From Candidatus Omnitrophota bacterium (lineage in GTDB: Bacteria > Omnitrophota > Gorgyraeia > Gygaellales > Profunditerraquicolaceae): a stretch of DNA of 64,000 nt. Of this stretch, positions 1,517 to 58,686 are shown one piece after another. The DNA is taken from the NCBI GenBank assembly GCA_041650835.1, contig JBAZKL010000003.1, positions 35,682 through 99,681 of the forward strand, read 5' to 3'. Made by a program: the position numbers and the translations under genes. Every line of letters starts with the position of its first letter. The stretch's first letter is position 1. The notes beneath the pieces were generated by a model. That model worked only from the letters and a program-made list of their open reading frames with translations. It was not told the DNA's origin and made no database searches.

Positions 1517-1614
1517 ATTTTGATTGTTCGCAGCAACCGCATCCGGGATAAAACAACAGTATTACACAAACACACCGCAAGCGACGCCGCAAGACCCGTA
1601 TTCCCTGTTTTTGA

Positions 1615-2940
1615 TCAGATTAAATGCAGATATGCTTTACCTTCTTTTAAAGGGCTGATAAAACGTTCTATTTTAATAGTATATTTGATCGGCTTTAAAT
1701 CAATCAGCTCCTTTGAAGGTCTGGGGGCGATGATTTCAACCTTAGGATTAAAGATATCATCCTCATTTTCTTCCCTGACAACAGCGATACTTCCGTCACT
1801 TAATGCCACCAGCGTGCCGATCGGCCAAACGCCCATATTTCTATAAAAAGCGTCGAAAAGCTTCGGTTCAAAGCCAAAGCCCCTGTCCTTTTGCATGATC
1901 TCATAGATCACCGGCGGCGGATAATCATTCTTATAGGAACGCCGCTGCATCAACGCGTCATAAACGTCACAGAGCGATACCAAAAGCGAAACGAAATGCG
2001 GCGGCCGCCCGAATGACAATTTAGGATACCCTTTTAAATTATATTTCAAGTGATGTTCGTAAGCGACAATAACGGGAAGGAACCCCAAGGTATCGACATA
2101 TTTCAACAATATCTCGGAACCGACAGTTACATGATTAGTGATCTTACTGAATTCTTCGGAAGTCAATTTATCCGGCTTTTGAATGATCTTGCGGGAGATA
2201 TAGAGCTTACCGATATCGTGGAAAAGAGCGGCGATGCCGATATCCAGAACATCCTCCCGGTCAAAGCCGAGCTTCGTGGAAAAATACATGGAAAGAATAG
2301 AAACATTTAAAACATGACGGAACGTCGTTATATCATAGCGCTTGACCGCGGTCAACTTTAAAAGGTCATGGAATTGGCCCATCAAACCTTCCATCATGTT
2401 CAAAAGGTTGAATTTCAGGTCAAAAGGATCCACTTCCTGGCCGGAAAGTAACGCTTCCATGCTCTGCGTGACATTATCCAAAGAACTATCGTAAGCCTGC
2501 GCCGCGTTAACAGCCCCTCCCAGGAATTCGGGAGTGCCGTGTATTTTACCGACCGAAATATTCTTGACCCCCGCGAGCGATAAATACTCCTGAACGGTTT
2601 TCGTGAATTCCTCTTTCCGTAAAAGCAGGATATCGATAAACGCCATTAATTCCTGCCGGCTCATGAGGTAACGGAAGGCTATTCTTTCGATCTTTCGGTC
2701 TTTAAAATAAGAAATGATGGGTTTGACGCGCTTAGTCAGCTCGAAGAATATTTCCTTCTCAAAAACAAGTTCATCCCCAACGATACCGATGACTATTTCT
2801 TCTTTCTCGCGCAAAACCCCCTGCATGCTCTCAAAAGCGACGTCAAAATATTTCTTGAACCGGGGATGCGCGGTAGCATAAAGCTTTGCCACCTCTACAG
2901 CGGTCAAGAAAGTTGCGAATGCTGCTTCAACATTATTCAC
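1615..2940 (-). CDS. HD-GYP domain c-di-GMP phosphodiesterase
   Basis: HDIGK ... HHLKYNLKGYP motifs (HD and GYP) in the 441 aa ORF. Confidence 0.75.
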   Translation of the reverse strand: MNNVEAAFATFLTAVEVAKLYATAHPRFKKYFDVAFESMQGVLREKEEIVIGIVGDELVFEKEIFFELTKRVKPIISYFKDRKIERIAFRYLMSRQELMAFIDILLLRKEEFTKTVQEYLSLAGVKNISVGKIHGTPEFLGGAVNAAQAYDSSLDNVTQSMEALLSGQEVDPFDLKFNLLNMMEGLMGQFHDLLKLTAVKRYDITTFRHVLNVSILSMYFSTKLGFDREDVLDIGIAALFHDIGKLYISRKIIQKPDKLTSEEFSKITNHVTVGSEILLKYVDTLGFLPVIVAYEHHLKYNLKGYPKLSFGRPPHFVSLLVSLCDVYDALMQRRSYKNDYPPPVIYEIMQKDRGFGFEPKLFDAFYRNMGVWPIGTLVALSDGSIAVVREENEDDIFNPKVEIIAPRPSKELIDLKPIKYTIKIERFISPLKEGKAYLHLI

Positions 2941-4885
2941 GCTGCCACCTTTTTAAAAGCTCCCGGGTTTTTTTCCGGATGCCCGACCCGCCCCAAACCC
3001 AGCGCTTCCCCAAAAAAGCCAAATAACCCTTTGCCTCCCGGATATCAAGCTCCTCGATAAGGATCAGGCTCTCCATAACGGTCTTATTTTCCTTTCCCCA
3101 GAAATGAGGAAAGACAAAAATCTTATCCAGGGCTTTTTTTGCCGTCGCAGGGTCTTTAAGCAATATCTGTAAAGCTTCTTTCTTCAACAGGATATCCTGC
3201 CCCTCAAGGATAGAAAAGAAATATTCTTTATCAAAAACGGGCAGGCGCCCGAGGGCCTGTAATGCTTCAGACTTCATCAGCGCGTTTGATTTTGAAAAAA
3301 TATATTTCAGGATCTCCTGGGCCAAGGGCGATTGGACAAAGACCAATGCTTCAACGACCTTGCCGATCACCTCCAGATCAGCCGCTTTTTTATCCAGCTC
3401 CTCATAAAAATGAGGCAGTTGATCAGGGAAGAATTTCAGGAAAAACCTCAGGACGTACGCGTTGATAAGGCCTTCTTTAAACATCTTATCGAGGTAAAAC
3501 GGAGAATTCATCACGCTTTCCCGGATGAAAGGTATCAAGTAGTCGAAATCAGTCGGGACATTCTCCTGAAAAACGATATTCTCCACGGAATGCATGATAC
3601 GCTTACGCAGCATTTCCGATTCCGGCACCCAAAAAGGGCCTGTCTTTTCCTTTTCAACCAGGACTTCCAGGATAGAGCTGATATACTCCCATTCATTTGC
3701 CTTCACCGAAAGCTCAAATTCATTCGCTATTTTTTCTAAAATAAGCTGCAATTTCTTTACATCGGCCTCGCTGGTAAGCAAATTAAGCAAGATCAACCGG
3801 TAGTGCGTGTTCAACGTATCCTGCTCCAGCCTGAATTCTTTATCCCGCATCGTGTTTTCCAAGACCACAGAAAGCGCGTGGCGGTAGACCTCAGGGATAT
3901 ATTGATTCTCTTCGGTTGAAAAAAGAGCCTTGATCTTATTGCGCAGGCGGACATTCCCCTTTAAAGCATCAACGTTCTTCGCTTTTTGCTCAATCACGGC
4001 CGCGACTTCCGCGTGTTTGGAATTATTGACCAACTGCGAAAACAATTGAAAGCTCATAGCGTCAAAAGAATGGTCGGAAGTCATTTGGTCCCATAACGCG
4101 TCAGCCAGATTGCTTTCGCTTAAATCCTTAAACAACGCTTTTATTTCATCCGCGCTGTACTTCTTAGTAACTTCTTTATCGTTTAAGATCAACTTTAAAA
4201 GCCCCTTCGAGCAACCGGCAAACCGGTTTCCCTCCTTATCATTTTCTTTGATATATCCGAAGAATTCTTTTACGTTCTTATTAAGGGCCGTGTCTTCAAA
4301 TAGATCTTTGACCTTGAATTTACCGACGATCCTTTCAAAATTATTCGCCGCGTTAGCGATCTTCTGCGGGTCACGCTTATTCATCGCGTCGCGGAATAAA
4401 TATATCCAAATATCTTTACATTCTTCTCCCTCGCTTTTAAGCAATTGGGAAAAATCAAGCTCTTCAACAAGCACATGGCTGATCTTTTCCTGGTCAAGTA
4501 TGTTCTGCAATCCGCCTGAACGTATGATATCACGCGCGGACATAGCCATCTTGGAAAGAAAGACGATAAGCTCCTCAAGGGTTACCCCGGGGCGGATCTC
4601 CAGCCCCTGGATCTTACGGGCGTGAAAGACCAAAGTGATCTCGTTCGAAAGGGCCGCGTAGGTAATAATAAGCCCTTCCACGAACACGGAAGTATCGCTA
4701 AAATTGACCTTTATCGGGTTTGCGTAGTTCAAAAGTTCTTCGATCTTGCCTTTAAGAGCCTCTACTGACTTTATATAATAGGGATGCTCTTGAAAATAAG
4801 CTGAGGCGTTATTAAAAGCGACTTTTAAACTTTTAAAGAATTCAAGATAGGCGGTTTCTTTGTCCATAATAATACTTACCCTCAT
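2933..4885 (-). CDS. hypothetical alpha-helical (HEAT-repeat-like) protein, co-transcribed with HD-GYP (8-nt overlap)
   Basis: long ORF, helical-repeat-like composition, no recognisable catalytic motif. Confidence 0.45.
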   Translation of the reverse strand: MRVSIIMDKETAYLEFFKSLKVAFNNASAYFQEHPYYIKSVEALKGKIEELLNYANPIKVNFSDTSVFVEGLIITYAALSNEITLVFHARKIQGLEIRPGVTLEELIVFLSKMAMSARDIIRSGGLQNILDQEKISHVLVEELDFSQLLKSEGEECKDIWIYLFRDAMNKRDPQKIANAANNFERIVGKFKVKDLFEDTALNKNVKEFFGYIKENDKEGNRFAGCSKGLLKLILNDKEVTKKYSADEIKALFKDLSESNLADALWDQMTSDHSFDAMSFQLFSQLVNNSKHAEVAAVIEQKAKNVDALKGNVRLRNKIKALFSTEENQYIPEVYRHALSVVLENTMRDKEFRLEQDTLNTHYRLILLNLLTSEADVKKLQLILEKIANEFELSVKANEWEYISSILEVLVEKEKTGPFWVPESEMLRKRIMHSVENIVFQENVPTDFDYLIPFIRESVMNSPFYLDKMFKEGLINAYVLRFFLKFFPDQLPHFYEELDKKAADLEVIGKVVEALVFVQSPLAQEILKYIFSKSNALMKSEALQALGRLPVFDKEYFFSILEGQDILLKKEALQILLKDPATAKKALDKIFVFPHFWGKENKTVMESLILIEELDIREAKGYLAFLGKRWVWGGSGIRKKTRELLKRWQRE

Positions 4886-6915: not shown

Positions 6916-7069
6916 TTCTGCCTCCTTTGTATATTAGATGAATTCCACTGATAAATCCTGTAAAAACCGATATATTTAAAGTATAACACAATTTGGGGAA
7001 GCTGTAAAGGTAAGGGAACAAACTTAATAAACAGCTGACAAAGCATGTTTTGAACAACACATTAAGAAA

Positions 7070-7192
7070 GTCTAAAGTATAAAGACTCAATAACAAAGGA
7101 AGGTTAAAGAATAAAGGTTTAATTTTAAAATTTAACCTTTATTCTTTGGGTTTCCTTTGTTTTTTAAGCTTTAGACTTTTAAATTAACGTTA
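7070..7192. repeat. AT-rich ~130-bp palindromic element (copy 1 of 4)
   Basis: gtctaaagtataaagactcaataacaaaggaaggttaaagaataaaggtttaatttt | aaaatttaacctttattctttgggtttcctttg... Confidence 0.55.
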
Positions 7193-7220
7193 TATCTACT
7201 TATTAAGGTAAAACAAGATA

Positions 7221-17577: not shown

Positions 17578-17620
17578 ACCATCCCCCTTAATAACAACCG
17601 TATATACCGTTAATTTTAAA

Positions 17621-17748
17621 AGCTAAAGGCTAAATAACAAAAGAAGATTAAAGGTATAAGGTTTAATTTTAAAATTTCCTACCTGCCGGTAGGCAGGAAC
17701 CTTTTGCCTTTGAATTTTCTTTGTTATTTATTCTTTAGCCTTTAAACT
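17621..17748. repeat. AT-rich ~130-bp palindromic element (copy 2 of 4)
   Basis: arms aaaggctaaataacaaaagaagattaaaggtataaggtttaatttt / mirror image, central cctacctgccggtaggcagg. Confidence 0.55.
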
Positions 17749-17759
17749 TACATCAGTAC

Positions 17760-17987
17760 CTATACTTCTTTCTTTATCACCTTGAAAAACTGTAGCTTCT
17801 TACACTGAGGGCATAAACCCAGGGTCCTTTTCCCCTTACTCTTGGCGTAAGCGCGCACGCCGCCGGCAGCCCAATATGATATCGAATAACCGCACTGCGG
17901 GCATTCCAGAAACCATTTCTTGGATTCATCCTCGACTTTCTGAAAAACCTTCTTAGGCAGTAACTTTTTGAGAATTTTGCGTAACAT
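17760..17987 (-). CDS. small zinc-ribbon protein (CxxC...CxxC)
   Basis: 75 aa, CPQCGYS...CPQCKK. Confidence 0.4.
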   Translation of the reverse strand: MLRKILKKLLPKKVFQKVEDESKKWFLECPQCGYSISYWAAGGVRAYAKSKGKRTLGLCPQCKKLQFFKVIKKEV

Positions 17988-22742: not shown

Positions 22743-22895
22743 AGCCGGCTCCTTTTTGTTATGATTATTAATAGTATAGTAAAACACAGATTAAAAGAAC
22801 GTTAAAATAACATTAAGTTTCTTTAATGATTGCAAGACACATGACACAAGTCGCAAGTGGTCAGTAGTCCACAGTCCATAGTCGATAGTAATTGA

Positions 22896-23066
22896 TAAAC
22901 TTTACGGTTATGCTGAAGCGCACATTAGAAAACTTTTTCCAAAAGTCTGCGAGGAATTACGAGGTGTTGAAGCACGATGCTCTCCCGTAAATCTACTGGC
23001 GGAAACACCGAGTAAACCGAAGCAGACGGAAAAAGTTTTCAGTGCGCGCAAGCAAAACCGTAAAGT
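22896..23066. repeat. rod-like structured repeat K2 (paralog of K1)
   Basis: aaactttacggtt...aaaccgtaaagtt termini; 5' gaaaactttttcc pairs with 3' ggaaaaagttttc. Confidence 0.45.
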
Positions 23067-23079
23067 TACATCATAAAAG

Positions 23080-23230
23080 TAGAGAAAACGGAATATTCGA
23101 TAAACAAGAAAATCCGGGGAACCGGTAATCGGGGACTAGAGAATCTGGAGATTGGGGAATCCGGGATGATGGTGACAGGGGACATCCGGAGAACCGAAAA
23201 GCCGGGACAGAGACATTAAGAGAATGAGAA
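23080..23230. repeat. GGGGA-periodic repeat (paralog at 51690-51755)
   Basis: tccggggaaccggtaatcggggactagagaatctggagattggggaatccggg vs tccgggaaaactggtaatccgagactaggggatcgggtgatcgggg. Confidence 0.4.
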
Positions 23231-23236
23231 TAATAC

Positions 23237-26759: not shown

Positions 26760-27101
26760 TCATCCGATTGCTCCTGGACCTCGTTCTTCGGTACGGATAC
26801 GCACGCATTCCTTAAGGTCTAAGACGAAGATCTTTCCGTCGCCGGTCTCCCCTGTCTTGGCTCCCTTGACGATCGCTTTTATCGTCGGCTCTACATAATT
26901 ATCGTTCACCGCGATCTCAAGGCGGATCTTTCGCAGAAGGTTCCCCGTTTCTTTGGCGCCCCGGTACACCTCCGTAACACCCTTCTGCCTGCCGTGCCCC
27001 AACACTTCGCTTACCGTGATCAGGTTAACTTCCGCTTTATATAACTCCTCTTTTACTTCCTCTAACTTGTATGGTTGTATTATCGCTATTATTAACTTCA
27101 T
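26760..27101 (-). CDS. glnK: nitrogen regulatory protein P-II (copy 1)
   Basis: [17 protein letters not shown]..., T-loop RYRGxxY-like region; >99% nt identity to copy at 28862-29206. Confidence 0.9.
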
Positions 27102-27119
27102 ACATCCTCCTTTTCCAAA

Positions 27120-27225
27120 GTCACCAGACACATGTCACAAGTCACAGGTTACAGATCGCAGATGCAAACTGTTCCAATTGTTCTTGTGTCTTGTGACCTG
27201 CGACTTGTGACTCTATATATTCTTT
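27120..27225. repeat. inverted-repeat element with CAGACACATGTCACAAG motif between amt1 and glnK1
   Basis: gtcacaagtcacaggt ... gacctgcgacttgtgac. Confidence 0.4.
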
Positions 27226-28454
27226 TACTCCAATACCGTATACGCCCTCTCCCGGTGCTGCGTCAGGTCAAGGCCCATCATCTCTTCCTTCTCCGTCACG
27301 CGCATCCTAAAGAATATATCCACAAGTTTATATATAACAACCGTGCCGATAAAAGTATAAACTACAGCAACCCCCAAACCGGCCGCCTGGATCAATAATT
27401 GCTTCGGGTTCCCGAAAAACAATCCGTCAGCGCCAGCCGGGTTGACCGCCTTGGAAGCGAATAACCCGGTCGCGAGAGTCCCCAGGATACCTCCAAGCCC
27501 ATGGACACCGAAGGCATCCAGAGAATCGTCATAGCCGAATTTCGGCTTGATCACTGCTACGCCGATAAAACAAACAATGCTGGCAAATATCCCTATTACG
27601 AGCGCGGAAGACGGGCTGACAAAACCGGAAGCAGGGGTAATGGTCGCAAGTCCTGCGATAGAACCGGTAACAATACCGAATACGGTCGGCTTACCGTTGC
27701 GTATCCATTCCAAAAGCGCCCAGCTTAATCCGGCGCTGGCCGCGGCGGCGTTCGTCGCCACAAAAGTACTGACTGCCAGCCCGTTAGCCGCCAGAGCGCT
27801 GCCCGCGTTAAAACCGAACCACCCGAACCAAAGCAGCGCCGTCCCTAAAACTACCAAAGGAAGGTTATGCGGAGCAGGGACATTATGTTCAAGGTTTTTT
27901 CTCCTGCCGATTATTAAGGTAGTCACGAGCGCTGCTATTCCCGCGCTCGTATGCACAACAATGCCCCCCGCGAAATCAAGCACTCCTAAATTCTTAAGCC
28001 AACCTCCCTCACCCCAGACCCAATGGCAAAGAGGGGCGTAAATAAAGGTGCTCCATAAAAGAGTAAATACCAAAAATGCCGAGAAGCGGATCCTTTCCGC
28101 GAAAGCTCCGATAATAAGCGCAGGAGTAATGATAGCGAACATCGCCTGGAATATCATGAATGCCTGGTGCGGGATCGTCCCGGCATACGCGGCATACGGC
28201 TCTACCCCCACGCCGTTCAATCCAAACCAAAGCGAACCGCCCCAAAAACCCTTCCCCGGAGCAAACGAAAGGCTATAGCCAAAAAGCATCCAATGCACCG
28301 TCAACAAACATAAAACAAAGAAACATTGCATCAAGACGCTCAAAATGTTCTTTCTTCTGACCATCCCTCCATAGAAAAAGGCCAATCCCGGGGTCATTAA
28401 CATAACAAACGCGCTCGAGAATAAGACAAATACCGTATCTCCCGAATTAATCAT
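27225..28454 (-). CDS. amt: ammonium transporter (Amt family), copy 1
   Basis: 409 aa, 11 TM, typical Amt signature. Confidence 0.9.
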   Translation of the reverse strand: MINSGDTVFVLFSSAFVMLMTPGLAFFYGGMVRRKNILSVLMQCFFVLCLLTVHWMLFGYSLSFAPGKGFWGGSLWFGLNGVGVEPYAAYAGTIPHQAFMIFQAMFAIITPALIIGAFAERIRFSAFLVFTLLWSTFIYAPLCHWVWGEGGWLKNLGVLDFAGGIVVHTSAGIAALVTTLIIGRRKNLEHNVPAPHNLPLVVLGTALLWFGWFGFNAGSALAANGLAVSTFVATNAAAASAGLSWALLEWIRNGKPTVFGIVTGSIAGLATITPASGFVSPSSALVIGIFASIVCFIGVAVIKPKFGYDDSLDAFGVHGLGGILGTLATGLFASKAVNPAGADGLFFGNPKQLLIQAAGLGVAVVYTFIGTVVIYKLVDIFFRMRVTEKEEMMGLDLTQHRERAYTVLE

Positions 28455-28547: not shown

Positions 28548-28735
28548 GCACCCCGGCTTAAAGGAGTGCCGGGTATGCGCCTTCTGCGGCAACACCCCGG
28601 CTTAAAGGAGTGCCGGGTATGCGCCTTCTGCGGCAACACCCCGGCTTAAAAGGATGTGCCGGGTGTGTTGCTTTCTGCGTACACCCCGCGCTATTCTGTA
28701 TTGCGCGGGTGTGTTGCTTTCTGCAACAAAGGCGT
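28548..28735. repeat. tandem ~44-bp hairpin repeats (x3) plus REP-like unit in amt1 leader
   Basis: cccggcttaaaggagtgccgggtatgcgccttctgcggcaacac x3, then caccccgcgctattctgtattgcgcgggtg. Confidence 0.6.
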
Positions 28736-42556: not shown

Positions 42557-42559
42557 ATT

Positions 42560-42810
42560 AATTTCCCCTGCTATTCTGATTATTTCTATAAATGGGGTAT
42601 GGGTAAAGGTAAGGCGGTTAGTTTAGTAGTTAGGAAAGGTAGTTTGGGTTCAAGATCTAACTACCTTTCCCAACAACCAAACAAATATCCTAACCTTAAC
42701 CATAATCTAACACTATAGGTCATAGACCATCAACCGTGGACTAACGCCTACCTGTTTACCCCGAGCTTGTCGAGGGGTGTCTTGTGTCATGCGACATGTG
42801 CCTACAACCT
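42560..42810. repeat. mosaic repeat region between atpZ-like gene and atpB
   Basis: shares gttagtttagtagttaggaaagg, ccccgagcttgtcgagggg and cttgtgtcatgcgacatgtg modules with 51590-52130. Confidence 0.5.
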
Positions 42811-42813
42811 GCT

Positions 42814-43050
42814 TCAAGGCTTCTTGTCCACCAACAGCACAAATTTAACAAGCCTGATTATTTCTATTAAACTGGCTAAAAAACCCGTGCCGATACAAAT
42901 ATAATACACCCACGCACCTGCGTTAAATTGCTTTACGAAATATTCACCTGCCAGATATCCGGCCACCGGGCCAGAGGCCAACAAGAGCGGGATAAAAGCG
43001 GCAACGCCGGCGATCTTAATTAATTTATAGGGTCCTTCTTTTTCAGCCAT
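42814..43050 (-). CDS. small two-TM membrane protein upstream of atpB (AtpZ/AtpI-like)
   Basis: 78 aa, position as first gene of atp operon. Confidence 0.45.
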   Translation of the reverse strand: MAEKEGPYKLIKIAGVAAFIPLLLASGPVAGYLAGEYFVKQFNAGAWVYYICIGTGFLASLIEIIRLVKFVLLVDKKP

Positions 43051-46547: not shown

Positions 46548-47213
46548 CTACAGCGCTTCGGGATGGTGTTTTACCACTCTTGCTTCAACCAGATAGACCA
46601 CATCTTCGGAGATATTGGTCGCGTGGTCGCAGATACGCTCAAGATGCCGGGCTATCAATAGAAGAGGAACCGCCCGGTCAGCGGTTTTCGCATCACGCGC
46701 CATATAATCATTGATCAATTCATCCTGGACCAGGTTACGCAGCTTATCCGCTTCTGAATCAGACAAAACCACTTTTTTCGCCAAATCAACATTCTTGTTA
46801 ACAAACGCCTCGATCGAATCATGCACCATATTCTGGGCAATGACCGACAATTTCGGGATATCAACTAATGGTTTCAATAAAGGCTTATCGACCAATTCAA
46901 GCACTCGTTCTGCGATATCAACTGACAGATCGGCAATACGTTCAAGCTCGGAATTGATCTTCATGGCGGTAGCAATAAACCGTAAATCACCTGCCATCGG
47001 CTGATACCGCGCGATCAGGTCGATACAACGTTCATCGATCGCCAGCTCCAGTTCATCGATAGAATTATCGTGGCCGATGATCTCCCGGGCTGCCTGCTGA
47101 TCGCGGTTTTTTAACGCCTCAATGGATTTATAGATAGATTCCTGCGTCAACGCGGCCATTTTTAGAATATCCTTATGTAACTCCTTTAACTCGTCGTCAA
47201 AATGCCTCTGCAT
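46548..47213 (-). CDS. phoU: phosphate transport system regulator PhoU
   Basis: 221 aa, two PhoU repeats. Confidence 0.85.
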   Translation of the reverse strand: MQRHFDDELKELHKDILKMAALTQESIYKSIEALKNRDQQAAREIIGHDNSIDELELAIDERCIDLIARYQPMAGDLRFIATAMKINSELERIADLSVDIAERVLELVDKPLLKPLVDIPKLSVIAQNMVHDSIEAFVNKNVDLAKKVVLSDSEADKLRNLVQDELINDYMARDAKTADRAVPLLLIARHLERICDHATNISEDVVYLVEARVVKHHPEAL

Positions 47214-47229
47214 AACTCCTCCTGAATAT

Positions 47230-47500
47230 ATATTAGTTTAGCATAAATCGCCTGATAAAACGAATTTTATATTTAATACCCCCTATGGACTATCGAATAC
47301 TTGTGTCATGTGTCTGGATTCCCTTATCCCTTAGTCCCGGCTCCGGGTGCCCCAGTCGCCAGTGCCCCAGCATCCCAGTATTTTTACGATGTAACTTTCC
47401 AGTCTCTCATGGACCGTGGATCATGGACTATGGACCATCGACTACTTGTGTCTTGTGTCATGTGACCTGCGACCAAATCCCCTCATCACCTGAGGAAGCT
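47230..47500. repeat. mosaic repeats (GGACTATGGACCATCGACTACTTGTGTCATGTG-type) between pstB and phoU
   Basis: two internal copies; related to 22840-22890 and 51760-51800. Confidence 0.45.
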
Positions 47501-48256
47501 CTACCCGTATCTTCCCGTAATATACTCTTCCGTCCGCTTATCCTGCGGGGAGGTAAAAACACTTTCAGTCTTGCCGAACTCCACCAACTCCCCTAAAAGC
47601 ATAAAACCCGTATCGTCAGAAACACGCGCAGCCTGCTGCATATTATGCGTAACAATAACAATAGTATACTTATCTTTAAGTTCACGCATGAGCTCTTCGA
47701 TCCGCGCGGTTGCCTGCGGGTCAAGCGTAGAACACGGCTCATCCATCAACAAAAGATCAGACTTTACGGCAATAAGCCGGGCGATACAAAGCCGCTGTTT
47801 TTGTTCCAGAGAAAGGCTTAAAGCTGATGCGCGCAGCCTGTCCTTTAACTCATCCCATAAAAGCACCGAACGCAAGCTCTGCTCGACCGCTTCGTACAAA
47901 TTTTCTTTTGTTTGCTTAAGGCCGTGTATCCTTAAACCAAACACCACATTCTCGAAAATGCTCAAAGGAAAAGGATTGGGTCTTTGAAAAACCATCCCAA
48001 CGTTCTTACGCAGCTCCACTAAATCAGTTTTTTGATCTAAGATATCCTTCCCGTCGATCAAAACGCGCCCCTCCATCCGAACGCCTTCCACGAGGTCGTT
48101 CATCCGGTTAAAGACCCGTAAGAGCGTAGACTTACCGCAGCCTGACGGCCCGATAATAGCGGTGATCTTTTTTTCCTGAAGGCTGACGCAAACGCTTTTT
48201 AAGGCCTGGAAACCGCTGTACCACAAATTGAGATCATGAGTGATTATTTTAGCCAT
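47501..48256 (-). CDS. pstB: phosphate ABC transporter ATP-binding protein
   Basis: Walker [10 protein letters not shown]. Confidence 0.9.
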
Positions 48257-48263
48257 AGATCCA

Positions 48264-49010
48264 TTATCCGAATTTACCGCTGATATAATCTTCCGTCCGT
48301 TTATCCTTGGGCGCGGTAAAGATCTTATCTGTCTTATCTATTTCAATCAGCTCACCCGAAAGGAAAAAAGCGGTCCTATCCCCCACCCGCGCGGCCTGCT
48401 TCACATTATTCGTCACCAAAACGATGGCGTATTGCTCTTTAAGCTTAAGCATTGTTTCTTCCACTTTCGCCGTTGATATCGGATCCAGCCCGGAACAAGG
48501 CTCATCGAACAAAATGACTTCGGGCCCGACTGCCAGGGTGCGGGCGATACAAAGGCGTTGCTGCTGTCCCCCGGACAACTTAAATGCTGAAAGAGAAAGC
48601 CTGTCTTTAACTTCATCCCAAATATAGGCCTGCCGCAAAGCCCCTTCCACAAGCCCGTCTAATTTCTTTTTTTCCCGTATGTTATGCATCCGCGCACCGT
48701 ACGCCACATTATCATATATCGATAACGGCAGCGGCATAGGCATCGCGAAAACCATTCCGACCTTCTTGCGTAAAAGCTCCAGATCCATGTCCCGAATATT
48801 CTTTTTATCGAAAGAAACCGTCCCTTCCATGCGGAAATGCGCCTGCAATTCATTGAGCCGGTTAAGCATGCGTAAAAATGTGGTCTTACCGCTGTTAGCA
48901 GGGCCGATCACGCTTAAAATCTCCCTGGTCTGTATATCCATGCGGACATTATTGATCGCTTGCACTTCCCCGAACCAGATATGGAGCCCCTCAATATTGA
49001 ATTTTACCAT
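48264..49010 (-). CDS. pstB: phosphate ABC transporter ATP-binding protein (second copy)
   Basis: Walker [10 protein letters not shown]. Confidence 0.9.
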
Positions 49011-49855
49011 TTCTTTTTCTTTCTGAACTGATACCGTATAACGATAGCTACTAAATTCATAAATAACACCAGCGTCAACAAGACCAGCGCGGTGCCATAG
49101 CGGGTCTTTTCATCGACGTTAGGCACCTGCGTTGAGATTACGTAAAGATGATACGGCAATGCCATTGCCTGGTCAAAGACCGATCCCGGCAGTCGCGGCA
49201 GATAAAAAGCCGCGACCGTAAAAAGAATAGGCGCTGTTTCACCGGCAGCTCTCCCTAACCCCAGGATCGTACCCGTTAAAATACCGGGGATCGCGTTCGG
49301 CAGGACAATATGACGAATGGTCTGCCATTTACTGGCGCCTAAAGAAAGGCTTACTTCGCGAAACGAATACGGGACGCTCTCCAAAGCTTCGCGCGAAGTC
49401 GTGATAATGATCGGCAGGATCATGATCCCCAGCGTCAATGACCCGGAAAGAATAGATGCCCCGAATTTCAGGAAAACGACAAAAAGCGCCAGGCCAAAAA
49501 GCCCATACACAACTGAAGGGACCCCTGCCAGGTTCACAATTGCCAATTTGATCATCCTGGTCAAAAGAGTATCTTTGGAATATTCGCTTAAATAGACAGC
49601 CGCCAAAAGCCCTATCGGAAGGGCAAAAATAATCGCTCCTGACACTAAATATAAAGTACCGACAATCGCGGGGAATATCCCTCCGGCGCGCATCCCTTGC
49701 CGAGGGATATCGCTCAAGAATTGCCAATTGATCGCCGGTAAGCCCTTTTGGATAATAACTAAAACGATCAAACCGACAGGCAGAACGACTAAAAAAGTAG
49801 CCAGGAATAAAAAGAAAAACGCGATACTCTGGGTTTTTTGAGGGTTTCGTCTCAT
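49004..49855 (-). CDS. pstA: phosphate ABC transporter permease PstA
   Basis: 283 aa ABC permease. Confidence 0.85.
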   Translation of the reverse strand: MRRNPQKTQSIAFFFLFLATFLVVLPVGLIVLVIIQKGLPAINWQFLSDIPRQGMRAGGIFPAIVGTLYLVSGAIIFALPIGLLAAVYLSEYSKDTLLTRMIKLAIVNLAGVPSVVYGLFGLALFVVFLKFGASILSGSLTLGIMILPIIITTSREALESVPYSFREVSLSLGASKWQTIRHIVLPNAIPGILTGTILGLGRAAGETAPILFTVAAFYLPRLPGSVFDQAMALPYHLYVISTQVPNVDEKTRYGTALVLLTLVLFMNLVAIVIRYQFRKKKKW

Positions 49856-50721
49856 CGCTTCTTATGCAAGAATATATCCGCGGTGACATTGACCGCAAAG
49901 CTGATCAAAAATAATACGATACCTATGGCGAATAAAGCGAAATAATGCTCGCTGCCGACAACCGCTTCGCCCATTTCCGCGGCAATGGTCGCGGTCAAGG
50001 TGCGCACCGGCTGCAGGATCGAAGACGGAATAACCGCGGAATTACCGGTGATCATCATCACGGCCATTGTTTCACCGATCACTCGTCCTATCCCCAGCAT
50101 GACCGCCGCCAGGATACCGGAAGACGCCGCAGGCAGGATAACGCGATAAATAGCCTGCCAATGCGTGGCACCCAGCGCCAAGGCGCCTTCTTTATATGCC
50201 CGGGGCACTGAATAAAGCGCATCTTCCGCGATAGAAACAATCGTCGGCATAGCCATAAAAGCAAGGATGATCGATCCTGAAACGGCTGTCAACCCGGTAG
50301 GCAAACCAAAGGCGTGCTTGACCCAGGGGACCAGGGTCACCATACCGATAAAACCAAGGACAACGCTGGGAATTGCCGCCAAAAGCTCAATCCCTGATTT
50401 TAAGAGCTCTTTAATATTCTGAGGCGCGACTTCCGCGATATAAACGGCGCAGGCAACGCCGATGGGGATGGAAATGATCGCAGCGCCCACGGTAACATAG
50501 AGCGACCCCAGGATCAAAGGCAGGATACCTAATTGGGGCGGCTCAGAAATCGGGTACCAGTTCTTGCCGAACAAAAACGATGGAATGCTGACTATTTTAA
50601 ATAACGCCAGCCCCTCTTTCAGCAAAAACAAGAAGATAAGCGCGACAAAGAAGATCACCGCGATCCCGCAGCAAAAGATCAACTTCTCAATGATGAATTC
50701 TTTGAATTTACGCATGATCAT
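49852..50721 (-). CDS. pstC: phosphate ABC transporter permease PstC
   Basis: 289 aa ABC permease. Confidence 0.85.
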   Translation of the reverse strand: MIMRKFKEFIIEKLIFCCGIAVIFFVALIFLFLLKEGLALFKIVSIPSFLFGKNWYPISEPPQLGILPLILGSLYVTVGAAIISIPIGVACAVYIAEVAPQNIKELLKSGIELLAAIPSVVLGFIGMVTLVPWVKHAFGLPTGLTAVSGSIILAFMAMPTIVSIAEDALYSVPRAYKEGALALGATHWQAIYRVILPAASSGILAAVMLGIGRVIGETMAVMMITGNSAVIPSSILQPVRTLTATIAAEMGEAVVGSEHYFALFAIGIVLFLISFAVNVTADIFLHKKR

Positions 50722-51569
50722 TGAACCGGCACAAAATCAGTCTCCTTAACGATAGACTGCCCTTCCTGAGAGAGTATAAAATCAACAAAGCTCTTAACCG
50801 GCCCCTGAGGCGCGGCATTGGTATATAAAAATAACGGGCGCGAAATAGGATATGCCCCCGTCATTACGTTTTCAATGGTGGGAGAGAAAAAAGCTGCCGA
50901 ACCATCTTTGGCTACCGCGATGGGTTTTTGCTTTGAAGAAATATACCCCATGCCATAATAACCGATCGCGGAAAGGTTCTGAGTTACTTCATCGGCAATC
51001 GCCTGAGAAGAAGAAAGCATGAGCGCGGAAGGCGCGAATTCTTCTTTGGAGCCGGGATCATTCTTACGCAACACATGCTCTTTAAAATAAACATGGGTGC
51101 CGGAATTTACTTCCCGGGACAGGAGCACGATCTTCTGGTCAATCCCTCCCAATTCCTTCCAATTAGTTATTTTACCGGTAAAGATCTGCGCGAGCTGCTC
51201 AAGCGTCAAATTACAAACCGGATTCCCCGGATTTACTACCACTGCCAGCCCATCCAACGCGGCCTTAATTTCATACGGAGCAATTCCTTTTTTAGCCGCA
51301 AGGTCTATTTCTTTATTTTTAATATTGCGCGAACTCATCGCGATATCACAAGAATTACTCAGAAGACTGGCGATCCCCGTGCCTGAACCTCCGCCGGTAA
51401 CCGCGATAAACTCTTCCGGATGATTCTCCATGAATCTTTCCGCCCAAGCCTGACCCAAATTCACCATGGTATCCGAACCTTTAATCTGTAGTGAATTCTT
51501 TCCTGAAGCGGCGAAAACAGGCGTTACTCCCAAGAACAATGCTACTACAAACAAGAATTTCTTGATCAT
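50718..51569 (-). CDS. pstS: phosphate-binding protein PstS
   Basis: signal peptide, periplasmic binding fold. Confidence 0.85.
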   Translation of the reverse strand: MIKKFLFVVALFLGVTPVFAASGKNSLQIKGSDTMVNLGQAWAERFMENHPEEFIAVTGGGSGTGIASLLSNSCDIAMSSRNIKNKEIDLAAKKGIAPYEIKAALDGLAVVVNPGNPVCNLTLEQLAQIFTGKITNWKELGGIDQKIVLLSREVNSGTHVYFKEHVLRKNDPGSKEEFAPSALMLSSSQAIADEVTQNLSAIGYYGMGYISSKQKPIAVAKDGSAAFFSPTIENVMTGAYPISRPLFLYTNAAPQGPVKSFVDFILSQEGQSIVKETDFVPVQ

Positions 51570-51589
51570 ATTTCCTCCTTTTCCTTATA

Positions 51590-51885
51590 GAGAATACTAT
51601 ACACTTCCCATATTATATCCATGTGAGGGCCATGTTAAATCTATGTAAAGTTTTGGAGTATTATCGAGGGGGTGTTCACAAGAAATTCAGTACAGGGATA
51701 TCCGGGAAAACTGGTAATCCGAGACTAGGGGATCGGGTGATCGGGGAATACAGACACATGACACAAGACACAGGACACACGTAGTCCATGGTCCACGGTC
51801 GATGGTCCACAGTTATAGGGTGTGGTTAAGGTTAAGATGTTAGTTTGGTTGTTAGGTTAAGGAGATGGGTTATTGAACGTTAATG
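51590..51885. repeat. mosaic of dispersed repeat modules
   Basis: ccgggaaaactggtaatccgagactaggggatcgggtgatcgggg, cagacacatgacacaagacacaggacac, tggaccatcgac, ggttaaggtta modules. Confidence 0.5.
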
Positions 51886-52020
51886 ATAAAGGTTAAAGTC
51901 TAAATAACAAAGGAAATTCAAAGAATAAAGGTTAAATTTTAAAATTACCTGACTGCAGGCAGGAATCTTGAACCTTAGACCTTTAATCTTCCTTTGTTAT
52001 TTATCCTTTAGACTTTAGAC
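51886..52020. repeat. AT-rich ~130-bp palindromic element (copy 3 of 4)
   Basis: ggttaaagtctaaataacaaaggaaattcaaagaataaaggttaaatttt ... mirror; centre acctgactgcaggcagg. Confidence 0.55.
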
Positions 52021-52130
52021 TTATCTTACTATTTATTGTTTTAAACCAAACTCCTTTACCCAACTACTAAACTAACTTCTTTACCCTTTCCTAACTACCA
52101 ATATTAAAGTAGCAGGTCCCCCCTCGACAA

Positions 52131-52379
52131 GCTCAGGGTAAACCCTTCGACTTAATTGACACGTAAGACTATCAGGCGCTCAGGGTAAACCCTTCGACTT
52201 AATGAACAGGTAATGTTATAAGACGCTCAGGGTAAACCCTTCGACTTAATTGACACGTAAGACTATAAGGCGCTCAGGGTAAACCCTTCGACTTAATTGA
52301 CACGTAAGACTATAAGGCGCTCAGGGTAAACCCTTCGACTTAATGAACAGGTAATGTTATAAGACGCTCAGGGTAAACC
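52131..52379. repeat. 47-bp tandem repeat x5.3 (units A-B-A-A-B-partial); last units encode the C-terminal codons of PhoR
   Basis: gctcagggtaaacccttcgacttaattgacacgtaagactatcaggc / gctcagggtaaacccttcgacttaatgaacaggtaatgttataagac. Confidence 0.85.
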
Positions 52380-53559
52380 AGAACTCTGAACCCAGGCCTT
52401 CAGTGCTTTCGACGCCTACACTACCGCCATGCAATTCAACAATATGCTTAACGATAGAAAGGCCAAGGCCGGTTCCACCGAGCTCCCGGGAACGCCCTTT
52501 ATCAACGCGGTAAAAACGTTCAAAGATACGGGAGATGTCTTTTTCAGGGATACCGCTGCCGGTATCCTTAACGAGGAACTTCACAAACCCATTCAGGGCT
52601 AACGAGGAAACCACAACTAAACCGCTTTCACGGTTAAATTTAATAGCATTATCGATAAGATTGGTAAACACCTGTTCAACCTTGTTTTTATCCGCATAGA
52701 CAAGTTGCTCATGCGGCACTTTATTCTCCAACCGTAAAAACCTCTTTTTTATCTGGACGCTGAACCCGGAAGCTATCTGTTCTATGAGCTTTCTTACCTC
52801 GATCTTTTCTTTCTTGATTTCTACCGGGTGAGACTCCAGATTTGAGAGGCTCAACAGGTCGCTGGTCAGCCTGTCTAAACGGTCCGCGTGCTCCTGAACG
52901 ATCTTTAAGAAATTCCGGCTTTCTTCTTTGTCATCGATTGCCCCCTCTAAAAGCGTCTCCACAAAACCCTTGATCGAGGTAAGCGGGGTCTTTAATTCAT
53001 GCGAAACATTTGCCACAAAATCAGAACGGATCTTCTCCAATTTCCTCATCTCGGTGATATCGTGAATGACCAATACACAGCCGCTTACCGAGTTATTCTC
53101 AAATAACGGCGTCGCGTTCACCTGAAATATCTTTTGCAGGGGCCAGATGACGCTCAGCTCTTTGGAAAGGAATTTTCCGTTTCTTAAGGCAGCCGTTACG
53201 ATCTCAGCGACATCATTATTGGAAAAGGCCTCAAGGAATAATTTCCCCTCGATCTCCCGGCGGGGGATATTCAATATCCTCTCTGCCGAAGGATTAACCG
53301 AAATGACCCGGGTATCTTTATCAACCGCGATCACCGCTTCTGCCATATTCCCCAAAATAGCCTGATGCTGAGCGTTCTCTTTTTCAAGCGAGTTGATCCG
53401 GAATTCTATCTTTTGAAGAAGCTCGTTTAAAACACTCACTAATTGCTTTATCGAAACAGAGGCGTAATACGCGGGGATCCGGACATGATGATCTCCGGCT
53501 AAGACTTTTTGCAAGATACTGACAATTTCTTTAATTTGACTGCCGGCGAAAAATATCAA
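52357..53559 (-). CDS. phoR: PhoR-like sensor histidine kinase (PAS-HisKA-HATPase)
   Basis: H-box SHELKTPL; paired with PhoB-like regulator. Confidence 0.8.
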   Translation of the reverse strand: MIFFAGSQIKEIVSILQKVLAGDHHVRIPAYYASVSIKQLVSVLNELLQKIEFRINSLEKENAQHQAILGNMAEAVIAVDKDTRVISVNPSAERILNIPRREIEGKLFLEAFSNNDVAEIVTAALRNGKFLSKELSVIWPLQKIFQVNATPLFENNSVSGCVLVIHDITEMRKLEKIRSDFVANVSHELKTPLTSIKGFVETLLEGAIDDKEESRNFLKIVQEHADRLDRLTSDLLSLSNLESHPVEIKKEKIEVRKLIEQIASGFSVQIKKRFLRLENKVPHEQLVYADKNKVEQVFTNLIDNAIKFNRESGLVVVSSLALNGFVKFLVKDTGSGIPEKDISRIFERFYRVDKGRSRELGGTGLGLSIVKHIVELHGGSVGVESTEGLGSEFWFTLSVL

Positions 53560-53562
53560 GAT

Positions 53563-54258
53563 TTATTCCTCATCGAAAAGGAAACGGTACCCGTAATTCT
53601 TCACGGTAACGATCCTTTGTGCCTGTTTCTTGAGTTTCTTGCGCAATGTCCTGATATGCACGTCAACAGTGCGCGTTTGTATAAGAGAGGCATGGTTAAA
53701 CCCCCAAATAGCATCTAAAAGGTACTCCCGCGATAAAACCCTTCCCTGCGCGCCAACGAGAGTTTTAAGCAGCTCGAATTCCTTTGAAGTAAGCTCAACC
53801 GGCTTACCGTCAGCCTCTACCTTGATCCGTGAAAAATCCATGCTGAGACCTTTGACCGTAACCAACGACAGAGAAGATGCTTTTTCTTTCACGCGGCGTA
53901 ATACCGCTTTAATGCGGGCGGTCAATTCTCTCAGGCTGAAAGGCTTAGTGACATAATCGTCGGCGCCGAGCTCTAAACCGACGATCTTATCGGTTTCCTG
54001 GCCTTTCGCGGTCACCATAACAAGCGGGATCGCCGCGGTAGCGTCTTTTTTCTTAAGCTGACGGCAGACTTCAAACCCGTCTATTCCCGGCAGCATTAAA
54101 TCCAAAATGATAAGATCGGGATGCTCCTGGCAGGCCAGGCTCAATGCTGATTCCCCATCAAAAGTAGAGAGGACCCTGAATCCCTCTTTTTTCAGGTTGT
54201 ACTCGAGCATGCGAACGATATCTTTTTCATCGTCGACAATAAGGATCTTTTCTTTCAT
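53563..54258 (-). CDS. phoB: phosphate regulon response regulator PhoB (OmpR family)
   Basis: 231 aa REC plus winged helix. Confidence 0.85.
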   Translation of the reverse strand: MKEKILIVDDEKDIVRMLEYNLKKEGFRVLSTFDGESALSLACQEHPDLIILDLMLPGIDGFEVCRQLKKKDATAAIPLVMVTAKGQETDKIVGLELGADDYVTKPFSLRELTARIKAVLRRVKEKASSLSLVTVKGLSMDFSRIKVEADGKPVELTSKEFELLKTLVGAQGRVLSREYLLDAIWGFNHASLIQTRTVDVHIRTLRKKLKKQAQRIVTVKNYGYRFLFDEE

Positions 54259-54305
54259 AATGCTTTAACGGCGCAAGAAACACGCCCATAAAATATTACA
54301 CGCGC

Positions 54306-54980
54306 CTATTTTGATTTTATCGCGACGACTTTAATGAAATCAGCGGCATCCTCGATCTTATCCGTTACGCCTTCAAGATATTCCGCCAGCTGATAGGTAA
54401 GCAATAATGTCGCCGGCTCAAGCTGGGTATGAATGATCGACTCGATCAAAGTCTTCTTTTTGTCATCTGCTTCATGCTCAAAACGGTCGACATCCGCGCA
54501 ATCAAGCAACGTCTTCTTCAAGTCGTTCTTTATGACCGCCTGAATAGCGTCTTTAAGCTTCGTTATCGAAAAAACAATCGATTCAGTGCTGGAAGCTATA
54601 TTTTTCAGGATATTATCGGGGAGCTTTTGTTCAATAAAACCCAAGAGGCGCGCTGAGCCGTTAGTCCAATCAGCGATCTTATCCAATGATTTCACAAAAT
54701 GCATCAGGTCTTCCCGGTCAGGGGCCAAAAGCAGGCTTTCGGAAAGTTCGCTGACCATTTTTGTGCGCAGCAGGTCAGCCTGATGCTCGCTCTCCCTGAC
54801 TTTTTCGATTGCGATTGTTTTTGCCTCCAGATCAGCTTTGATGAACGCGCTGACCGCGTCGGCAAAATACGTCACGCATTTAAAAGTCTCATCAACGTGT
54901 TTTTGAGCGTCTTGTAGAATAGACTGCTCCTCTGCCATACCTAACCACCCGAGGATATTACGGACTTCTTTCATGTTCAA
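54306..54980 (-). CDS. DUF47 (PhoU-like) protein associated with Pit transporter
   Basis: 224 aa helical, upstream of pit. Confidence 0.7.
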   Translation of the reverse strand: MNMKEVRNILGWLGMAEEQSILQDAQKHVDETFKCVTYFADAVSAFIKADLEAKTIAIEKVRESEHQADLLRTKMVSELSESLLLAPDREDLMHFVKSLDKIADWTNGSARLLGFIEQKLPDNILKNIASSTESIVFSITKLKDAIQAVIKNDLKKTLLDCADVDRFEHEADDKKKTLIESIIHTQLEPATLLLTYQLAEYLEGVTDKIEDAADFIKVVAIKSK

Positions 54981-54986
54981 CCTCCT

Positions 54987-55967
54987 TTAAGCTTTTACGC
55001 ACATTACAATTATTTTTAAGACGATAAAGCCGACAATCCCGGAAATAAACGGTGTCGCCAGCCAACAGATGATAATCTCACGCATGATCCGTAGATTCAT
55101 CACCTTAACTCCCTTAACCAGGCCCACGCCGAATATCGCACCGACGATAGAATGGCTCGTTGATACGGGGATACCAAACAAGGTATACACATGGACATTA
55201 ATAGCGCTGGCTAATTGCGTCGCGAAGGCCATAAGCGGCAGGAGATGCGTAATATCGGAACCTATGGTTTCAATGACCTTGTAACCCCAGGTCATGATAC
55301 CGAGGACGATTGCCAGGCCGCCGAAAACAACGCTCATTTGAGGGGAAAGTATCCCCGCTCCCGCGATAACACCGGTAGCATTAGCAACATCATTGGCGCC
55401 CCAGGTATAGGCGACATAACAACCGCTCAAAATGACCAGGACCGCGACGCTCACGCGAAAATAACGCGCAGGAATAATCCGATGAGCGATTTGTTTAAGA
55501 ATAAGGTAAAACACATACCCTAAAATAGCGGCACCGAGAGGCGTAAAGATCCAGCACATAAATATATCCAGCATTATCTTCCATTTAACCGGCGCATGGA
55601 TCGCTAACCCCGCCCCTGCCACCGCTCCGACAATGGAATGGCTTGTTGAAATCGGTATTTTCCGGTAAGTCGCTAATACCACCCAGAAGCAGGCAGAAAA
55701 CATAGCAACCATCGCCACATATAAAGACATGGTTTTATCTAATTTATCGATGGGCACGATCCCTTTTCCAATGGTATGCGTTACGTATGAGCCCTGCAGG
55801 GAAGCTCCAAGGAAGCCAAAAAGCACGATTAAAATGATCGCTTGTCTTAAACTTAAAACCCGTGAACCGACTGCGGTTCCCAGGGAATTCGCCGCGTCAT
55901 TAGCTCCGATCGACCAGCCAACCGCCACTCCCATCAACAAAACCAGAAAAACAAGAAATAAATACAT
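54987..55967 (-). CDS. pit: inorganic phosphate transporter, PiT family
   Basis: GANDVANA repeats in both halves. Confidence 0.85.
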   Translation of the reverse strand: MYLFLVFLVLLMGVAVGWSIGANDAANSLGTAVGSRVLSLRQAIILIVLFGFLGASLQGSYVTHTIGKGIVPIDKLDKTMSLYVAMVAMFSACFWVVLATYRKIPISTSHSIVGAVAGAGLAIHAPVKWKIMLDIFMCWIFTPLGAAILGYVFYLILKQIAHRIIPARYFRVSVAVLVILSGCYVAYTWGANDVANATGVIAGAGILSPQMSVVFGGLAIVLGIMTWGYKVIETIGSDITHLLPLMAFATQLASAINVHVYTLFGIPVSTSHSIVGAIFGVGLVKGVKVMNLRIMREIIICWLATPFISGIVGFIVLKIIVMCVKA

Positions 55968-58528: not shown

Positions 58529-58551
58529 TCAAAAAATGGTAGTTAGATTAC

Positions 58552-58680
58552 GGTAAAGTTTAAAGGATAAAGACTAAATAACAAAGGAAATTCAAAGATT
58601 AAAGTATCAATTTTAGAATTTATTATTTAAACTTTAACCTTCCTTTGATATTTGATATTTAATCTTTAACCTTTATCATT
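58552..58680. repeat. AT-rich ~130-bp palindromic element (copy 4 of 4)
   Basis: ggtaaagtttaaaggataaagactaaataacaaaggaaattcaaagattaaag ... mirror. Confidence 0.55.
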
Positions 58681-58686
58681 AACGCG

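Follow-up and report, generated by a model that had tools for sequence, protein, structure and literature searches.

A 47-bp tandem array at the 3' end of phoR in an Omnitrophota genome as a probable local amplification of a dispersed extragenic repeat

The 47-bp tandem array that runs into the 3' end of phoR, upstream of pstS, in a Candidatus Omnitrophota bacterium (GenBank assembly GCA_041650835.1, contig JBAZKL010000003.1) raises the question of whether it belongs to the phosphate (Pho) regulon around it or is a repeat element that has settled there. It occupies positions 52131-52379 of the window, which here means the whole 64,000-nt stretch of that contig that was analysed, and an earlier note on the same DNA had proposed it as a potential contingency locus for phosphate-regulon expression. 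The reading favored here, with a probability of about 0.7, is that a family of small dispersed extragenic repeats, apparently not described before, has a member here that was amplified in place after one unit had entered the 3' end of phoR, with nothing pointing to a role in Pho regulation.

The anatomy of the array is regular. Tandem Repeats Finder (TRF) resolves 52131-52379 as 5.3 copies of a 47-nt period with 89% matches and no indels (score 393), and this result, together with a count of cores and a comparison of units, bears out the A-B-A-A-B pattern that the earlier note had read in the letters (A'-B-A-A-B on the plus strand). Units 2 and 5 are identical, as are units 3 and 4, and unit 1 (A') is one base away from A. 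Types A and B differ at 7 positions, all of which lie within a 21-nt variable part, while 26 of 26 core positions are the same (p ~0.002 for all seven differences landing in the insert by chance). This 26-nt part, GCTCAGGGTAAACCCTTCGACTTAAT, is present in five exact copies, all in the array and none elsewhere in the window, where 100 shuffles gave an expectation of 0. Stop codons interrupt all six frames of the array.

The unit reaches far beyond this locus. An exact scan found the 21-nt core GCTCAGGGTAAACCCTTCGAC, which spans the junction between successive units, on 86 unrelated metagenome contigs, whose GC contents range from 38 to 66%. In these contexts the natural unit consists of CCCTTCGAC, an insert of 0 to about 41 nt and GCTCAGGG, successive units are joined by TAAA, and arrays of 1 to 7 units start with CCCTTCGAC, finish with GCTCAGGGTAAAC and keep all of their units facing the same way in every array examined; solitary units also occur. 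With the phase taken from the 86 contigs, the locus in the window comprises five long units at 52143-52373 on the plus strand (CCCTTCGAC, a 26-nt insert and GCTCAGGG, joined by TAAA) and, at the pstS-side end of the array, one short plus-strand unit at 52120-52138 (CCCCTCGAC-AA-GCTCAGGG), which has the same form as many metagenome units and as a solitary short unit at 42759-42776 (CCCTCGAC-AA-GCTCGGGG). The latter lies on the minus strand in another mosaic intergenic region of the window and faces opposite to local transcription. Contig L108, a relative that shares other intergenic modules with the window, carries two 47-nt units with a very similar insert 3' of a gene for a 615-aa membrane protein, again facing opposite to transcription. 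The dispersal seen directly thus covers two loci in the window (52120-52373 and 42759-42776), two on L108 and the 86 metagenome contigs. The unit of the array is thus not specific to Pho genes: its 47-nt form stands behind an unrelated gene on L108, and 86 unrelated contigs share the core.

The taxonomic reach of the family is also wide. Contig L091, which carries the exact 21-nt core, encodes at 550-3234 a protein identical to HEY4839004.1 from a metagenome-assembled genome (MAG) of Ca. Acidoferrales (Acidobacteriota), so that the core occurs both in Acidobacteriota and in the Omnitrophota-like lineage of the window. On contig L129 a family array at 505-550 lies about 100 nt from an Acido-Lenti-1 RNA. 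Between lineages the cores are essentially invariant, and the inserts are 69-88% identical, near the value for third codon positions of phoR (68-91%); the half-sites are therefore either constrained or repeatedly homogenised while the inserts drift. When the flanks of family arrays were tabulated, the left one showed a slight tendency to have A in front of CCC, and no general target motif or target duplication emerged. The exact core had no match among viral contigs, and blastn of the array found none among plasmid and phage records. Rfam returned no family match on the whole window at the gathering score or on seven family loci, where it reported only tRNAs and the one Acido-Lenti-1 RNA. Literature queried with the DNA cores and with mistranslated peptides gave no mention of the family, and literature on Omnitrophota combined with repeat terms gave nothing relevant to it.

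Two minor features of these contexts may be recorded. Family units stand directly beside tRNA genes on contigs L089, L138, L148 and L162. On L102, at about 1963-2005, an open reading frame (ORF) appears to include two units, in frame, within the part that encodes its signal peptide (MSKPFAFAQGKPFDVAQGK...), with a 24-nt period equal to 8 codons.

Other identities suggested by the layout fit less well. The alternation of conserved 26-nt segments with 21-nt variable segments resembles a CRISPR array, an identity that the earlier note had already dismissed. It is rejected here too, for the 'spacers' are two recurring 21-nt sequences and too short, the arrays have half-repeats at both ends, the family has solitary units, and the neighbors are all Pho genes with no cas among them. 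A hammerhead-like core, a CsrA sponge and an integron attC site were rejected from anatomy alone. The 5.3 direct 47-nt repeats also resemble, in layout only, an array of the ToxI type, and on that ground the array might encode a regulatory RNA made of repeated units, for example a type III antitoxin like ToxI or a small RNA that acts as a protein sponge. That reading is exceedingly unlikely: all the neighboring genes belong to the Pho set, neither an Rfam match nor a conserved fold was found, and the family includes solitary units in many contexts. A type III toxin-antitoxin system was itself rejected, since the transcribed strand of the spacer between the array and pstS contains no ORF of at least 60 aa and thus none of toxin size.

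Comparison with relatives places the repeat at the same point in a whole group of phoR genes. A protein search supplied three close PhoR relatives whose DNA was compared, namely L169, L170 and L171; L136, which the core scan had picked up, turned out to be the L170 locus, and the lineages compared are separate species-level lineages. L169 (95% identical to the window in PhoR amino acids and 95% in phoR nucleotides) has one long unit, L170/L136 (82% and 83%) has two long units and a half-unit, and L171 (81% and 82%) has one, set beside five in the window; the position of the unit at the phoR 3' end is the same in all four. Unit number thus differs between relatives (5, 1, 2 and 1), and to this extent the earlier expectation of variation among related genomes held; the note had coupled it to the lack of a PhoB site elsewhere, and on that side it failed, since a candidate PhoB site does lie outside the array. 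The contigs L136, L170 and L171, which come from three independent assemblies, break within a few hundred bases downstream of phoR, inside mosaic repeat DNA, and such elements appear to be systematic breakpoints for metagenome assembly.

These breaks within repeats could be taken to favor an explanation by artefact, in which copy number and the order of A and B would reflect mis-resolved or chimeric repeats or a mixed population. The exact window sequence is carried by one assembly only (European Nucleotide Archive ERZ27247363, MEGAHIT k141, identical to the window), so that the five-unit count rests on this assembly without an independent contig to confirm it. However, the longest perfectly 47-periodic stretch is about 121 nt by the authors' own reckoning, and because this is shorter than k = 141 the array was resolvable by the assembler; the two unit types and the A' variant give unique 141-mers. 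In addition, like arrays of 2 to 7 units occur in many independent assemblies. An artefact of assembly is therefore improbable as the source of the count and order, and the existence of the element itself is beyond doubt.

The junction with phoR suggests how the repeat may have arrived. The gene lies on the minus strand at 52357-53559 and encodes 400 aa with PAS, HisKA and HATPase_c domains, ending in ...EFWFTLSVL; its closest homologues are PhoR proteins of Omnitrophota. It overlaps the first unit at 52357-52379 (codons W-F-T-L-S-V-L-stop), where (T)LS comes from the half-site CCCTGAGC and the stop codon, 52357-52359, from the first variable part. The claim that the last partial unit supplies the final codons of PhoR is correct, in that 52366-52379 encodes W-F-T-L-S. 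The four unit-carrying proteins end in FWFTLS[V/A](L) (LSA or LSV in the relatives), and among the 56 PhoR homologues listed from further afield almost all have the ending FWF[TI]LP[KR] or one much like it. A copy of GGTTTACCCT stands on either side of the single unit in L169 and in L171, and the phoR frame continued beyond the unit reads FTLPLESPLVP and a stop in L169 and FTLPIVLTEKTE and a stop in L171. This displaced in-frame FTLP remnant, taken with the FWF[TI]LP[KR] ends of the distant homologues, argues that a unit was inserted into the last codons of phoR.

The event may be pictured as follows. In an ancestor of the window lineage, one unit would have entered the last phoR codons at a native GGTTTACCCT (codons W-F-T-L), a sequence that mimics the junction between two units. 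The insertion would have exchanged the native tail, LP(K) and a stop, for LS[V/A](L) and a stop, and displaced the old tail downstream. A phoR allele without the unit would then end ...TGGTTTACCCTYCC..., and the predicted empty site is ...GAGTTCTGGTTTACCCTYCCN..stop. At the corresponding codons TTTACCCT was found in 0 of 14 labelled PhoR genes, so the junction mimicry is specific to the codon choice of the window lineage.

Growth of the array in the window seems to have involved more than one process. A stretch of 108 nt recurs 141 nt further on with a single mismatch, which points to a recent local duplication of 141 bp, or three units. Local duplication and drift could not account for both insert types, if the single unit of L169 is ancestral, because the A and B inserts differ by 33% (7 of 21), whereas the phoR genes of the window and L169 differ by 5% (9% at third codon positions). 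At least one insert type was thus probably imported from another genomic copy. The second unit of L170 supports such import, being more similar to the L108 unit (0.88) than to its own neighbor (0.77). On these comparisons the locus in the window may have grown to five long units and one short unit through import followed by the three-unit duplication.

Several points weigh against the proposal of a mobile repeat amplified in place. The unit counts in the relatives are lower bounds, as short-read metagenome assemblies can collapse identical units. The phoR insertion would have happened only once, in an ancestor, and what is read as a remnant in L169 may instead be a short unit that has degenerated (CCCT..TCGAA); other family arrays show no such flanking duplication, just the slight tendency to have A in front of CCC. 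Neither a transposase nor terminal inverted repeats nor a consistent target-site duplication turned up (the ORFs of the window were not screened for PF01797), so mobility is deduced from distribution alone. Within the window the long-insert unit is present at one locus only, and of about 80 labelled PhoR loci from other genomes, in many phyla, none carries the family, whose range is patchy and sampled only from metagenomes. Finally, the invariance of the core suggests a sequence-specific constraint and could reflect some function.

A function in phosphate control is the one that the setting first suggests. If the array were a contingency locus, it would act through PhoB boxes, through the spacing of the pstS promoter, or through changes of unit number that alter the PhoR C-terminus. 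It does sit between phoR and pstS, its unit number differs among related lineages, and its cores are better conserved than its inserts. However, translation stops 9 nt inside the first insert whichever type it is, since B (GTC TTA TAA) and A (GCC TTA TAG) have their in-frame stop at one and the same position; the relatives have G[T/C]C TGA. A change of unit number therefore cannot alter PhoR by more than one residue.

The upstream region of pstS tells a similar story. The array had been described as filling this region, where PhoB boxes would be expected, but it occupies just the phoR-proximal 226 nt of a 787-nt spacer, and its pstS-side end at 52131 is 562 nt from the pstS start codon at 51569. 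Neither the E. coli form (CTGTCAT-N4-CTGTCAT) nor the Bacillus form (TTWACA-N5-TTWACA) of the Pho box has a match inside it at up to 1 or 3 mismatches. The only part of the spacer conserved with L169 is the pstS-proximal 113 nt (51570-51682, minus strand, about 94%), beyond which the two spacers are unalignable mosaic; this place of conservation is itself an observation. Within it lies a sigma-70-like candidate promoter for pstS at 51610-51638 on the minus strand (TTAACA - 17 nt - TAATAT), with a candidate Pho box, TTTACA-N5-TTAACA, over the -35 hexamer at 51633-51649 on the same strand, and both are identical in L169. The dimer is the only exact match to TTWACANNNNNTTWACA in the 64 kb and stands about 480 nt from the array; its putative assignment as a PhoB site follows the Bacillus PhoP consensus TTWACA-N5-TTWACA. 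The conserved 113 nt most likely provide pstS with a promoter and a PhoB site of its own.

The array, then, is separated from the promoter candidate and from pstS by 480-560 nt that include a hairpin of -84 kcal/mol, and the 47-bp period does not correspond to an integral number of helical turns. An array of Pho boxes is rejected, since the array has no match, the unit occurs in non-Pho contexts and the unit number is not conserved. The unit and its core occur, moreover, in other phyla. With neither reading frame nor promoter spacing predicted to respond to unit number, the proposal of a phosphate-regulon contingency locus was not sustained, and such a role is very unlikely; the array would appear to have no part in Pho regulation. 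The regulon itself is probably little affected, as the catalytic domain of PhoR is intact and pstS apparently keeps its own conserved promoter.

A second functional reading would make the array a cis-acting element, RNA or DNA, that selection maintains where the phoBR transcript ends (a stabiliser, an attenuator or insulator, or an RNase processing site); it has more in its favor yet remains unlikely. The first unit has been kept in place in four lineages, down to 81% PhoR identity, and the half-sites CCCUGAGC and GUCGAAGGG are able to form a stem of four Watson-Crick pairs, a tandem G-A/A-G and one G-C. The solitary unit at 42759 has one T:A to C:G change in this stem, which is weak support at best. 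No intrinsic terminator was found in the region, including after phoR, and BOX elements and bacterial interspersed mosaic elements (BIMEs) are known to affect the expression of neighboring genes (PMC3049150). However, the array as RNA folds no better than shuffled sequence on the two strands (z = -0.9 and +0.4), nor do single units as DNA (z between -0.9 and -1.7), and none of 13 predicted pairs has a compensatory change among 8 distinct long units (RNAalifold, weak consensus). Units of the family occur in both orientations to transcription, and there is no Rfam match; on the spacer, at E up to 10, Rfam gave only spurious microRNA-precursor matches to the long hairpin. Unit 1 might have been retained for no other reason than that it overlaps the stop codon of phoR.

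The dispersed-repeat reading gains from comparison with known small repeats. Its closest analogue is pneumococcal BOX (boxA, a variable tandem boxB, boxC), likewise a small dispersed modular repeat with a variable number of head-to-tail modules, and the boxB module is about 45 nt, close to the 47 nt here. The present family resembles it in being intergenic, dispersed and multicopy, with a tandem number that varies from 1 to 5 at phoR and from 1 to 7 elsewhere. BOX elements are modular interspersed repeats with tandem boxB modules whose number differs among loci and strains; they cluster with other repeats, insert into these and into transcribed regions, and modify coding ends (PMC3049150). The family differs from BOX in lacking counterparts of boxA and boxC, terminal inverted repeats, target-site duplication and sequence similarity, the two ends of its arrays, CCCTTCGAC and GCTCAGGGTAAAC, sharing only CCCT/AGGG as an inverted repeat. 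It also differs in that its variable part lies inside each unit between invariant half-sites, and in that it spans phyla, whereas BOX is confined to streptococci.

Repetitive extragenic palindromic (REP) sequences of proteobacteria, which are short and imperfect palindromes, and BIMEs form mosaic extragenic clusters that vary greatly between strains, can capture the 3' termini of genes, and can serve as attenuators or as stabilisers of mRNA (PMC2817692, PMC3049150). The spacer that holds the family shows the same mosaic mixing with other short extragenic motifs, and the 21-nt junction, GTCG-AAGGG-TTTA-CCCT-GAGC, can be parsed like a REP as a four-base head followed by a hairpin. However, the head is GTCG and not GT(A/G)G, the palindrome is very weak by predicted stability, no RAYT (Y1 transposase) gene has been linked to the family, and the units all face the same way, unlike the REPs of a BIME, which alternate in orientation. 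MITEs (miniature transposable elements with inverted repeats) and palindromic elements derived from IS200/IS605 are, like these units, short multicopy sequences without coding function whose ends are conserved and whose interior varies, and the phoR insertion, in one case, adjoins a specific short sequence as theirs do. The units nevertheless have no terminal inverted repeats, consistent target duplication or known partner transposase and, at 19-60 nt, are far smaller than typical MITEs. With variable-number tandem repeats (VNTRs) and contingency loci the array shares a unit number that differs between related lineages, but it stands after the stop codon, far from the promoter candidate, with no predicted effect on frame or spacing.

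The conservation of the family is of wider interest. The 21-nt core is identical across contigs of 38-66% GC and at least two phyla, Omnitrophota and Acidobacteriota, and because known REP-type repeats are specific to a species or genus, this identity calls for an explanation such as a shared enzyme or horizontal spread. A tentative and somewhat unlikely extension of the argument is that modular elements of only 19-60 nt, marked by the half-site pair CCCTTCGAC...GCTCAGGG(TAAA), may form a class not yet described, with variable cargo and invariant ends, which would build head-to-tail arrays by insertion at sequences resembling their own unit-unit junction and owe their identity across phyla to a sequence-specific, horizontally shared enzyme. 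If so, the phoR event would be a captured example of junction-mimic insertion.

Whatever their origin, such repeats have practical consequences for the study of uncultured lineages. They rewrite the last codons of genes and yield spurious repeat peptides (PFDxAQGK, LRVNPSTS), and they break metagenome assemblies, as in the three relatives whose contigs end in them. A tandem array found at the end of a gene in these lineages should be interpreted first as a mosaic repeat and only then as a regulatory switch.

The remainder of the phoR-pstS spacer is of the same general character. The spacer and other long intergenic regions of the window, about ten in all, draw on a common stock of modules, namely AT-rich long hairpins, 7-mer blocks and a ccgagactagg..gatcagggga block, and the modules of the spacer recur in varying order at eight or more other intergenic sites in the window. 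The mosaic regions include 6916-7220, 17578-17780, 22788-23236, 27100-27230, 42557-42830, 47214-47500, 51570-52130 and 58529-58686, as well as L108 5560-5960; the modules, among them the 7-mer blocks gtcacaagacacaag and gtagtccatggtcc and a ggggaatccgg..ccgagactagg..gatcagggga block, vary in both order and orientation. In the spacer itself, 7-mer blocks of the GTCCATG and AGACACA types (detected by TRF) and the ccgagactagg..gatcgggga block occupy 51695-51812 and recur at 22.8, 27.1, 42.7 and 47.3 kb and on L108. Between the array and the candidate pstS promoter, at 51830-52085 (51825-52095 at its widest), lies a long imperfect AT-rich hairpin of about 260 nt made of two nested modules (inverted repeats I1 and I2), which recur at 7.1, 17.7, 42.7 and 58.6 kb. 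Its RNA fold has an energy of -84.4 kcal/mol (z = -8.1 against shuffles), and one possibility is that it serves as a transcriptional insulator. Related AT-rich hairpins are found at 7068-7179, 17623-17750 and 58561-58684. The phoR-pstS mosaic is wholly different in the 95% relative L169, which indicates very fast turnover of the mosaic.

The surrounding genes form an unusually complete Pho cluster on one strand (46548-55967), with a PHO4-type transporter, two tandem pstB paralogues and a second PhoU. The order on the minus strand is PHO4, PhoU_div, phoB (53563-54258), phoR, the 787-nt spacer, pstS (50718-51569, the first gene of pstSCAB-B-phoU), pstC, pstA, pstB, pstB and phoU. All organism-named homologues of PhoR are labelled Omnitrophica or Omnitrophota, and the nearest species-level genome (L003), an Omnitrophota MAG with 58% PhoR identity, has no tandem repeat. 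The PhoR of the window (52357-53559) is without a transmembrane or extracytoplasmic sensor part, and many Omnitrophota homologues are about 590 aa long with a HAMP or dCache domain.

A second and unrelated tandem array, with a period of 44 nt, 2.9 copies and 93% matches, is present at 28549-28679 in another long intergenic gap of the window, and each of its units holds a CACCCGGC...GCCGGGGTG hairpin.

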